Below, one piece after another: positions 2,116-42,522 of a DNA stretch of 64,000 nt. Position 1 is the stretch's first letter; the number at the start of each line of letters is the position of its first letter. The translations under genes were made by a program, and so were the position numbers. The notes below the pieces were generated by a model. The model was not told the DNA's origin. It did not search any database and saw only the letters and a list, made by a program, of their open reading frames with translations. The DNA is from Escherichia coli (GTDB lineage: Bacteria > Pseudomonadota > Gammaproteobacteria > Enterobacterales > Enterobacteriaceae), in assembly GCF_002854065.1 (NCBI RefSeq), contig NZ_CP024147.1, one strand, 5' to 3'.

Positions 2116-3411
<1,296 letters not shown>

Positions 3412-3470
3412 TTATGCAAATCAGGAGAATCTGAGGGGAAATAGCCGGGCAGATGCCCGGCAAGAGAGAA

Positions 3471-4124
3471 TTACACTTCGGTTAAGGTGATGTTTTGCGG
3501 CAGACGAGATTTCGGCAGCGTAGCGTTAAAATCTTCAACGCTGTGATGACCTACCGGAACAACCACCAGACTGGTGTAGCCTTTCTCTTTCAGACCAAAT
3601 TCTGCATCGAGGATGGCGGCGTCAAAACCTTCGATGGGTACCGCGTCCAGACCCAGAGCCGCCACGCCGAGCAGGAAGTTACCGACGTTGAGATAAACCT
3701 GTTTTGCCATCCACTCTGCATCATCATGCAGATCTTTACGGTGCATATCAGCGAAGAACTTGCGACCTTTATCGTTCGCGGCTTTCGCTTCCGGCGTGGC
3801 AAAGCGGCCATCGGCATCTTCCTGGTCAACAACCAGCTTCAGCCAGGCATCGTCCATCGCGGTTTTTGCACAGAACACCACGACGTGCGAGGCATCAAGC
3901 ATTTTACGCTCGTTGAACACGTAATTACCGGCAGCGGATTTGGCAACACGCGCTTTACCTTCTTCCGTGCTGGCAACAATAAAATGCCACGGCTGGGAGT
4001 TGGTGCTGGACGGGCTGTATTGCAGTAGCGTTTTGATCTGCTCGGCCTGTTCCGGGGTAAGTTTTTTGCTGGCATCAAATGCCTTAGTGGAATGACGCTT
4101 TAAGGCGACAGAAATGATATCCAT
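3471..4124 (-). CDS. nfsB: Oxygen-insensitive NAD(P)H nitroreductase NfsB
   Basis: Track ORF 3471..4175; recalled NfsB (217 aa) starts [17 protein letters not shown]. Confidence 0.9.
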
Positions 4125-39704: not shown

Positions 39705-39712
39705 ATGGCAAT

Positions 39713-39746
39713 AAAAAGCCCCGCCGGGATGGCTCCGGGCAGGGCT
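39713..39746 (-). terminator. Putative terminator after uspG
   Basis: GC-rich hairpin (gccccgccggg...ccgggcagggc) preceded on the plus strand by aaaaa, i.e. a U-run on the minus strand. Confidence 0.5.
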
Positions 39747-39764
39747 GGAGACTTATTCTGACAA

Positions 39765-40193
39765 TTAACGCACAACCAGCACCGGCAGATTGGCGTGGCG
39801 GATCACGCTCGAGGCGTTAGAACCTAACAGATGGGTCGAAATCGATGGGTTGCGAGAACCGATAACTACAACATCAGCCCCCAGTTCTTCTGCCAACTCA
39901 TTGACTTCATCCCGCACGCTACCAAAACGGACATGTTGTTTAATGCGGGAAGGATCGATGGTGAAGTGGCTGACCATCGTTTGCAGACGTTCTTCTGCTT
40001 CATGTTGCAGATGCTCTTCAAAACGACGCACATCAGCGGCAAAACGGTGCAGGCTTAGGCTGGCTGACCCGGGTAGTACGTGAAGTAGATGAATAACTCC
40101 GTCATCCTGGGCGAGGAATTCAGCGTGGCGAACAGCTTTGTCGCTCAATTCCATTTCAAATACATCAACTGGCATAATGATTGTCTTATACAT
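39765..40193 (-). CDS. uspG: Universal stress protein UspG
   Basis: 142-aa ORF matching recalled UspG. Confidence 0.9.
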
Positions 40194-40413
40194 AACCCTT
40201 TCTCCCTGTTAATCATGAACAAATCATTCGCCATGATTATAATATTTATCCCTGATATTTGTCTGGTTCTTTTTCCTTACGAACGGTTTCTGTGATTAAT
40301 ATATTCTCACTGAACACCAGGAATTCTCCCAAAACCTGCGGTACCGCCCGTTTTCCCGCTGTGATAGCTACCCTTAAAGACTGACTTTTTTTTGAACTGT
40401 CTCTGGAGGTTGC

Positions 40414-41652
40414 ATGAAAGCATTGACTTATCACGGCCCACATCACGTTCAGGTAGAAAATGTTCCCGATCCGGGCATTGAACAGGCAGATGATATTATT
40501 CTGCGTATTACGGCAACGGCGATCTGTGGCTCTGACCTCCATCTTTATCGAGGCAAAATACCCCAGGTTAAACATGGCGATATTTTTGGTCATGAATTTA
40601 TGGGGGAAGTAGTTGAAACCGGGAAGGACGTAAAAAATTTGCAAAAAGGCGACCGGGTGGTAATTCCGTTCGTCATTGCTTGTGGCGACTGTTTTTTCTG
40701 TCGAATGCAGCAATATGCCGCCTGCGAAAATACCAATGCGGGTAAAGGCGCTGCGCTCAATAAAAAACAGATACCTGCTCCCGCGGCATTGTTTGGTTAT
40801 AGTCACCTGTATGGTGGCGTTCCTGGCGGGCAGGCGGAATATGTCCGCGTCCCTAAAGGGAATGTGGGGCCGTTTAAAGTACCGCCTTTGCTTTCAGATG
40901 ATAAAGCGCTTTTCCTTTCTGATATTCTGCCAACGGCATGGCAGGCAGCAAAAAATGCGCAGATCCAACAAGGTTCAAGCGTTGCAGTCTATGGTGCCGG
41001 TCCTGTGGGATTGTTGACAATCGCCTGTGCACGGTTGCTCGGTGCGGAACAGATTTTTGTTGTTGATCATCATCCCTACCGCTTGCGTTTCGCCGCCGAC
41101 CGCTACGGCGCGATCCCGATTAATTTTGATGAAGATAGCGATCCGGCACAGTCAATTATTGAACAAACGGCAGGTCACCGTGGCGTGGATGCAGTAATAG
41201 ACGCCGTCGGTTTTGAAGCGAAAGGCAGCACCACGGAAACGGTGCTGACTAACCTGAAACTGGAGGGCAGCAGCGGTAAAGCGTTGCGCCAGTGTATTGC
41301 GGCGGTCAGGCGTGGCGGCATTGTTAGCGTACCGGGCGTCTACGCTGGATTTATTCACGGTTTCCTGTTTGGCGACGCCTTTGATAAAGGGTTGACGTTT
41401 AAAATGGGACAGACCCACGTTCACGCATGGCTGGGAGAATTATTACCGTTAATTGAGAAAGGATTACTGAAACCAGAAGAAATTGTTACCCACTATATGC
41501 CGTTTGAAGAGGCCGCCCGGGGATATGAGATTTTCGAAAAACGTGAAGAGGAGTGCCGTAAGGTGATTCTGGTACCCGGTGCACAAAGCGCAGAGGCGGC
41601 GCAGAAGGCGGTTTCAGGTCTGGTGAATGCGATGCCGGGGGGAACAATATGA
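40414..41652 (+). CDS. ybdR: Zn-dependent medium-chain dehydrogenase family oxidoreductase YbdR
   Basis: 412-aa ORF with zinc-ADH features (CGSDLH, GHEFMG) and a Rossmann GAGPVG motif. Confidence 0.85.
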
Positions 41653-41882
41653 TCGTCAGGAGTGGTTTTCGAGGTAAAGGACAGCCATGACGATAATCGC
41701 CGCCATAATCAGAAATCCTATCAGGATGTAAAATGCTTCTGCCATGGTTATTCCCACAAACGAAACGGAATAATTTTGCAGCAAAAGTGAACAGTGAGAA
41801 CCAGGAAAAATTGCTGATTTTGCGTAAAGAGGATGCGAGTGCATCCTCTGGGCAAAGCGAGTTATCGCTTGTGCAGATGGGA

Positions 41883-42293
41883 TTAAAGCAGGTAGTCGCC
41901 AGCAGCTTCTGGCTGGTATTCGAGTTCCAGCACTTCAAGGTGGGTTGCAACGCCGCCCGGAAGTTCCCAGTGAATGGAATCGCCAACGCGCAGTCCCAGC
42001 AGTGCGGCACCTACCGGAGCCATAACGGAAAGCTGAGTATTGCTATCGGTCATTTTTGCCGGATACACCAGCGTGCGCACACGCACTTCGCCATCGCTAA
42101 GATTGCGGAATTTAACCCGGCTGTTCATTGTCACCACGTCGTGTGGCATCTCTTCTGGCGAACACATTTGGGCGCGATCCAACTCTGCGTTTAACGCGTC
42201 GGCGATTGGCAAACCAGCATAGGCGGGTTGCTCCAGCAGAATATCGATGCGTTCGGCATCCAGGTCGTTAATGATGATAGTTGGTCTGGACAT
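41883..42293 (-). CDS. rnk: Regulator of nucleoside diphosphate kinase Rnk (GreA/GreB-like)
   Basis: 136-aa ORF matching recalled Rnk. Confidence 0.9.
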
Positions 42294-42522
42294 TTTTACT
42301 CCATGTCGTCGGTACTGCGAGTGTCGCAGATAAACATACCCAAAAGAAAACCCTCACCGTCAGGCGGCGAGGGTTTAACTCACATGATGATACTGACTGT
42401 TGCTCACTCTTTGAAGTGATTTGCGTCACATTCAGGGAATTCCTCAATGCAGCGCATTATGTATAAATCTTAATCGCCTTGGTTTATGGAAGACGAATTA
42501 GCGTGTTTTGTAAATCAGAGGA

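Follow-up and report, generated by a model that had tools for sequence, protein, structure and literature searches.

The 29-codon open reading frame that lies downstream of rnk in the Escherichia coli DNA analysed here (the window, a stretch of 64,000 nucleotides) is very probably yldA, a true E. coli gene that is translated, was catalogued before this analysis and encodes a 29-residue single-pass inner-membrane protein. Since RefSeq, UniProt, NCBIfam and Pfam, together with a protein detection in 2018, already cover yldA, finding the frame amounts to a rediscovery: from 2018 on the gene has had a name, a detected product and family models, and the sole part with some novelty is the relationship between YldA and the small membrane protein YoaI, along with the mechanism that this relationship suggests. 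The case shows that a genuine small membrane protein gene is recognisable from raw sequence alone. Furthermore, the kinship with YoaI, which includes the glutamate critical for the interaction with EnvZ, gives the orphan YldA a testable hypothesis, and two deeply divergent E. coli yldA haplotypes, one with and one without ybdR, offer natural variants for function tests.

Identification of the open reading frame as yldA

The initial annotation had described a hydrophobic minus-strand frame of 29 codons after rnk, and the sequence together with the ORF list contains the ATG, the frame and the stop as claimed (Table 1); the product reads MAEAFYILIGFLIMAAIIVMAVLYLENHS. RefSeq holds a 90-nt CDS at exactly this position, annotated as "yldA: small membrane protein YldA", and the record of MG1655 contains the identical protein, WP_000796528.1, between rnk and ybdR. 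The region is 100% identical to that of an E. coli O18ac:H14 strain and 99.8% identical to that of K-12. At least 1,000 public contigs carry the exact YldA sequence, named "small membrane protein YldA" there, and its UniProt entry is YLDA_ECOLI. Indeed, the peptide matched two curated models over positions 1-29 of 29, namely NCBIfam NF041476 (membrane_YldA), with 57.9 bits against a cutoff of 45, and Pfam PF23689 (YldA-like), with 73.6 bits against a cutoff of 27.

YldA has also been detected as a protein. VanOrsdel et al. 2018 (PMC6001520) tagged each ORF with SPA at its 3' end on the chromosome and analysed rich-medium cultures by immunoblot, with YldA among the 36 small proteins detected. 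Table 1 of that paper gives yldA with the flanks ybdR/rnk, the MG1655 position 643330-643419, a length of 29 and a sequence identical to that of the window, so that YldA of K-12 and the product of the window ORF are the same in sequence, in locus between ybdR and rnk, in strand and in 29-aa length. The peptide is strongly hydrophobic (best 19-residue Kyte-Doolittle mean 2.97, at residues 7-25), and a membrane location is predicted from this hydropathy. The earlier proposal of a translated 29-aa peptide with a single predicted helix is borne out by the annotation as yldA, by the SPA-tag detection (PMC6001520), by the end-to-end model matches and by the purifying selection described below. The published record of YldA comprises the detection (PMC6001520), one RNA-seq excludon catalogue (PMC12288877) and one NaF transcriptome table (PMC10100675); no functional study of YldA was found in the searchable literature.

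Two details of the initial annotation were adjusted. The ribosome-binding-like GGGAA that it had pointed out is present, at a spacing of 5 nt from the ATG instead of the claimed distance of about 6 nt. A G-rich block (GGGGA, GGGAA or GGAA) is found at equal spacing before the ATG in the orthologous yldA loci, and GGGAA is the putative translation site. Likewise, yldA does end beside the stop codon of the convergent ybdR, and the two stop codons are separated by 3 nt, the previously given 4 nt being a difference in coordinates.

Table 1. Positions of yldA, its signals and the neighbouring features in the window
Feature	Position	Strand	Remarks
yldA CDS	41656..41745	minus	29 codons + TGA stop; encodes small membrane protein YldA
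yldA start codon (ATG)	41745..41743	minus	
yldA stop codon (TGA)	41658..41656	minus	
Shine-Dalgarno-like GGGAA	41751..41755	minus	5 nt 5' of yldA ATG
ybdR (zinc-dependent alcohol dehydrogenase)	40414..41652	plus	convergent with yldA
Gap between yldA and ybdR stop codons	41653..41655		
rnk (nucleoside diphosphate kinase regulator)	41883..42293	minus	upstream same-strand neighbour of yldA; synteny anchor
rnk 3' hairpin AGAGGATGC-ACTC-GCATCCTCT, then TTT only	41828..41849	minus	fold; 9-bp stem
62-aa ORF in the yldA frame	41656..41844	minus	upstream, frame open over 63 codons; spurious
ATG of the 62-aa ORF	41844..41842	minus	within 5' arm of rnk hairpin
rnk leader (Rfam RF01771)	42339..42447	minus	upstream of rnk; 124.9 bits, E 8e-25
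Terminator-like hairpin of the rnk leader	42376..42348		
Segment variable between E. coli haplotypes	40211..41821		1,611 bp
uspG and its start region	39707..40210		flank into which the divergent block seems to reach

Relationship of YldA to YoaI

YoaI (b1788, 34 aa), a small membrane protein induced by PhoB, builds up when Mg2+ is low, binds EnvZ and activates it (PMC11429745). In the family scan, YldA matched the YoaI model, NCBIfam NF041475, besides its own. All of the 34 distinct YldA sequences gave this match, with a best E value of 1.2e-8, and other families were matched by three members at most. In the reverse direction, the YldA model was the second best match for all six of the tested YoaI-family sequences, with residues 8-32 of YoaI in register with residues 3-27 of YldA.

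We then compared the two families as alignments. For YoaI, a full HMMER scan across 1.84 billion representatives supplied the relatives, which were trimmed to 18 sequences. The hhalign comparison of the YoaI set with the YldA alignment returned a probability of 96.7% (E 3.3e-10, score 39.4) over 27 columns, and none of 300 column-shuffled YldA alignments reached this score (9.8 +/- 2.6, maximum 24.9). Moreover, an HMM made from YoaI only retrieved yldA alone among the 2,321 small-ORF candidates of the window, with an E value of 1.4e-4 against 2.3 for the next best candidate. The shuffle controls, the reciprocal matches and the YoaI-only HMM thus indicate that the similarity lies in the order of the residues and not in mere composition. 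Pairwise BLASTP of YldA against YoaI produced no alignment, and the equivalog cutoff of the YoaI model, 45 bits, is missed by both E. coli alleles of YldA (22.5 bits for the window allele and 30 bits for the second allele), which match model positions 8-33 or 8-34 only.

Three residues of YoaI, S26, V27 and E31, are invariant, and the replacement E31A or E31Q abolishes both the binding and the activation of EnvZ (PMC11429745). They align with A21, V22 and E26 of YldA, all of which are invariant in YldA; two of the three pairs are identical, including the glutamate. Taken together, the comparisons provide good support for YldA as a homologue of YoaI, and we consider their shared ancestry likely; convergence remains conceivable for peptides so short. 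A partner shared with YoaI is not implied, since YldA falls below the YoaI cutoff and is without the N-terminal MNDQM. The YoaI paper (PMC11429745) makes no mention of YldA or of any paralogue, nor did the searchable papers mention homology or a shared action of YldA and YoaI.

Conservation and selection in Enterobacteriaceae

To follow yldA across genera, we used 82 loci, comprising 80 rnk-anchored loci with one genome per species and two E. coli reference loci, and searched their small ORFs with a YldA profile. An ATG-initiated ORF of exactly 29 codons was found on the rnk strand at 36 of these loci, and the orthologous start codon was usually located 128-150 nt past the rnk stop. The gene is present in Escherichia, E. 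albertii among them, in several Citrobacter and many Enterobacter, in Lelliottia, Leclercia, Phytobacter and Pseudenterobacter, and in one Kosakonia, as a single copy at one syntenic locus across the genera. It was not found at the rnk loci of Salmonella, the C. freundii group, Kluyvera, Trabulsiella and most Kosakonia, which marks yldA as dispensable. Four Enterobacter loci (L033, L034, L040 and L046, at about 3408..3560) have kept ybdR and lost yldA, with a spacer between rnk and ybdR that is shorter by ~100 nt; a recent deletion of yldA is suggested, because L040 still has sequence that is found upstream of yldA in its relatives.

The substitutions among the 36 distinct CDSs follow the yldA frame. 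The pooled pN/pS was 0.385 in the yldA frame and rose to 1.24 and 1.43 when the frame was shifted. Each of the 28 third-codon positions varies, as do 19 first-codon and 18 second-codon positions, and stop codons occur in the shifted frames of 33 and 27 of the 36 sequences, respectively. Residues M1, E3, A21, V22, L25 and E26 are invariant within the consensus MxExLxITLxFLIxxAIIVxAVLYLERHW, in which the window allele has the tail ENHS instead of ERHW. Judging from these patterns, the amino-acid sequence of YldA is under purifying selection. Conservation and a synonymous-versus-nonsynonymous comparison were among the checks proposed in the initial annotation, and both, with the frame kept in 36 of the 82 loci and off-frame ratios above 1.2, uphold the reading frame.

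Two E. coli haplotypes and the convergent gene ybdR

Among 5,426 complete E. coli genomes, essentially every one has either of two yldA alleles. About 3,600 of them have the arrangement of the window, in which rnk and yldA are followed by the convergent ybdR and then uspG, and ~1,816, including ST131, NC101 and UTI strains, are without ybdR and carry the yldA allele MSEALGITAFYIFIAAIIVAAVLYLEQRW between rnk and uspG. The two alleles are identical at 49 of 90 nucleotides (54%), with a pS of 0.80 and a pN of 0.36, and despite this low nucleotide identity both retain the 29-aa architecture and the invariant residues. The segment that differs between the haplotypes (Table 1) corresponds to 276 bp in the ybdR-less reference locus (L002 4180..4455). 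Of its flanks, rnk is 99.6% and uspG 91.5% identical between the haplotypes, and because the latter value is so low, the divergent block seems to reach into uspG. The protein of the ybdR-less allele is identical to YldA of E. albertii, and its nearest relatives outside Escherichia are Citrobacter alleles that are also without ybdR; the window allele comes nearest to that of the C. amalonaticus type. This distribution suggests that the haplotype pair is an old polymorphism or the result of an imported segment. The second allele (L002 4261..4350) obtained 59 bits with the NCBIfam model and 22.9 bits with Pfam PF23689, which is under the gathering cutoff of 27, and PF23689 therefore under-covers YldA.

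A distance of 2-11 nt separates the stop codons of yldA and ybdR in all 13 of the loci that contain both genes, and the pair is catalogued as a convergent excludon that appears in 50% or more of RNA-seq samples (PMC12288877). In genomes that have ybdR, transcription converging across yldA may reduce yldA expression. The 82 loci include 13 with both genes, 23 with yldA only, 10 with ybdR only and 36 with neither; as all four combinations of presence and absence occur, a functional linkage of yldA and ybdR was rejected.

The tight spacing of the stops and the reported excludon would be compatible with a role of yldA translation in cis only, for instance in the formation of the rnk 3' end or in interference with ybdR, in which case the peptide itself would have no function. 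However, such a role leaves the similarity to YoaI unexplained, and the purifying selection on the amino acids, with its six invariant residues, and the retention of yldA without ybdR in 23 loci and ~1,816 E. coli genomes likewise make it very unlikely. According to a further explanation, YldA would act as a type I toxin-like hydrophobic peptide that damages the membrane and is repressed by an antisense RNA produced by read-through from the 3' end of ybdR. YldA is indeed small and hydrophobic, the antisense transcripts overlap (PMC12288877), and overexpression of YoaI delays growth (PMC11429745). However, type I toxin peptides are characterised by a dedicated antisense sRNA, toxicity and often multiple copies, whereas yldA is a syntenic single copy across genera, neither multicopy nor on a mobile element, and a third of E. 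coli genomes keep it despite having no ybdR, hence no such antisense partner. YldA is also detectable in cells growing in rich medium (PMC6001520), and the NCBIfam and Pfam searches revealed no similarity to known toxin families. We therefore give the toxin explanation very little credence.

The initial annotation also raised a non-coding rnk 3' UTR; the frame would then have arisen by chance, in the UTR or the spacer, and no peptide would be made from it. Short ORFs are indeed abundant, with 60 frames of 20 aa or more over 3.5 kb and 2,321 nested candidates for small ORFs across the window, and the length of the yldA ORF alone is therefore not significant; the case rests on conservation and on the published detection. 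The Shine-Dalgarno-like site is weak, no upstream promoter was called, and YldA is not among the tetracycline ribosome-profiling positives listed by VanOrsdel et al. (PMC6001520). However, the SPA-tagged protein was detected from its chromosomal locus (PMC6001520), 36 loci share the same length, start and stop under the in-frame constraint given above, and the E. coli alleles keep their architecture across the 54% nucleotide identity. With the protein detected and the frame under purifying selection across genera, the non-coding alternative was discarded as extremely improbable.

The rnk 3' hairpin and the expression of yldA

The spacer between rnk and yldA contains a hairpin (Table 1), the stem sequence of which is invariant in 55 of 81 loci, with or without yldA. 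The hairpin belongs to the 3' end of rnk, as it is equally conserved where yldA is absent, and it was rejected as a part of yldA for the same reason. In the form GAGGATGC-loop-GCATCCTC-TTT, an invariant stem with a variable loop recurs across many genera; strict sequence conservation of this kind, rather than covariation, is unusual in the stem of a terminator, and the U-tract is a short one. The hairpin is probably a weak terminator or a 3'-end stabiliser between rnk and yldA, and it was not called in the terminator scan because of its short U-tract. The promoter scan found no convincing sigma-70 promoter between the hairpin and yldA, and its single nearby match lies inside the yldA CDS and is probably due to chance. 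The Rfam scan gave nothing over yldA or the spacer. The rnk leader, with a terminator-like hairpin of its own, was recognised upstream of rnk (Table 1). Because the 3' hairpin is U-poor and uncalled and no convincing promoter was found, we infer that yldA would be expressed mainly by read-through of this hairpin, or from a weak, unrecognised promoter of its own.

In an anaerobic NaF transcriptome (PMC10100675), yldA belongs to a cluster of 100 genes that is induced in a dose-dependent manner. The same cluster also holds osmotic-stress genes (proP, otsBA, osmC and osmY), envelope-stress genes, pspABCDE and phoPQ (PMC10100675), and the membership of yldA is weakly suggestive in view of the link between YoaI and EnvZ.

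The frame of the window allele is open beyond the yldA ATG, and a few deposited annotations call a 33-aa version with a GTG start. A longer 62-aa product was considered in the initial annotation; it would start at the ATG within the hairpin stem or at a nearby GTG or TTG. It was rejected as having next to no probability, given that an in-frame stop interrupts 13 of the 36 orthologous loci at 8-16 codons 5' of the conserved ATG, the second E. coli allele, one of these, has just 9 open codons upstream and no start among them, the curated YldA models cover residues 34-62 of the long form only, the extension is not conserved across loci, and the upstream ATG, embedded in the rnk hairpin with its invariant 9-bp stem, has no properly spaced Shine-Dalgarno sequence.

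Predicted topology and proposed mode of action

Lysine or arginine occurs at the N-terminus of none of the YldA orthologues and in the C-terminal tail of 28 of 34. The charge distribution fits the N-out/C-in topology predicted for YoaI; the argument is weaker for the window allele, because its ENHS tail is without a basic residue. In the 29-residue form supported above, YldA would insert with its N-terminus out and its C-terminus in, placing residues about 4-25 in the membrane and leaving a cytoplasmic tail of four residues that opens with the invariant Glu26. The inserted peptide may then modulate a larger inner-membrane protein, the likeliest being a sensor kinase (EnvZ or another), as YoaI does, and would contact this target through the helix face bearing A21 and V22 together with the Glu26 tail.

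By analogy, a YoaI-like mode of action, with YldA as a membrane-embedded modulator, is the mechanism that we find most likely, and we put it forward tentatively. Against it speak the missed YoaI cutoff, the missing MNDQM, the alanine in place of the invariant serine, the ENHS tail of the window allele and the failure of pairwise BLASTP to align the two proteins. In its specific form the proposal, which is possible and no firmer than the general one, would make YldA an N-terminally shortened paralogue of YoaI, a connector that binds a sensor histidine kinase through the juxtamembrane Glu26. If this is true, E. coli has a second small protein of the YoaI type that tunes two-component signalling, and this protein exists as two divergent alleles.

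Comparison with known small membrane proteins

YldA and YoaI are both single-pass hydrophobic peptides with the same order of residues over 27 columns, and in addition to the three residue pairs described above, E8 of YoaI corresponds to E3 of YldA. The tail LE[RK]x and the predicted N-out/C-in topology are common to both. Each gene has a convergent neighbour in a stop-to-stop arrangement, yeaK in the case of yoaI and ybdR in the case of yldA. At the reference locus, the yoaI CDS (L083 6079..6183) directly abuts the yeaK CDS tail-to-tail, and the equivalent of this junction for yldA in the window is 41653..41658. On the other hand, YldA is without the MNDQM at the N-terminus of YoaI, A21 takes the place of S26, and the YldA locus is that of rnk, whereas YoaI is encoded at that of yeaK. 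With its 22-30 bits, YldA counts as a relative of the YoaI equivalog family without belonging to it, and the regulation by PhoB, the interaction with EnvZ and the response to Mg2+ are known for YoaI alone.

The pairs MgrB-PhoQ, MgtS-MgtA/PitA and SafA-PhoQ represent further cases of small transmembrane regulators of E. coli membrane proteins (PMC11429745). The NCBIfam, Pfam and family scans showed no sequence similarity of YldA to MgrB, MgtS or SafA. What these proteins share with YldA is their class, a single helix in a peptide under 50-70 aa, and each of them binds a larger membrane protein.
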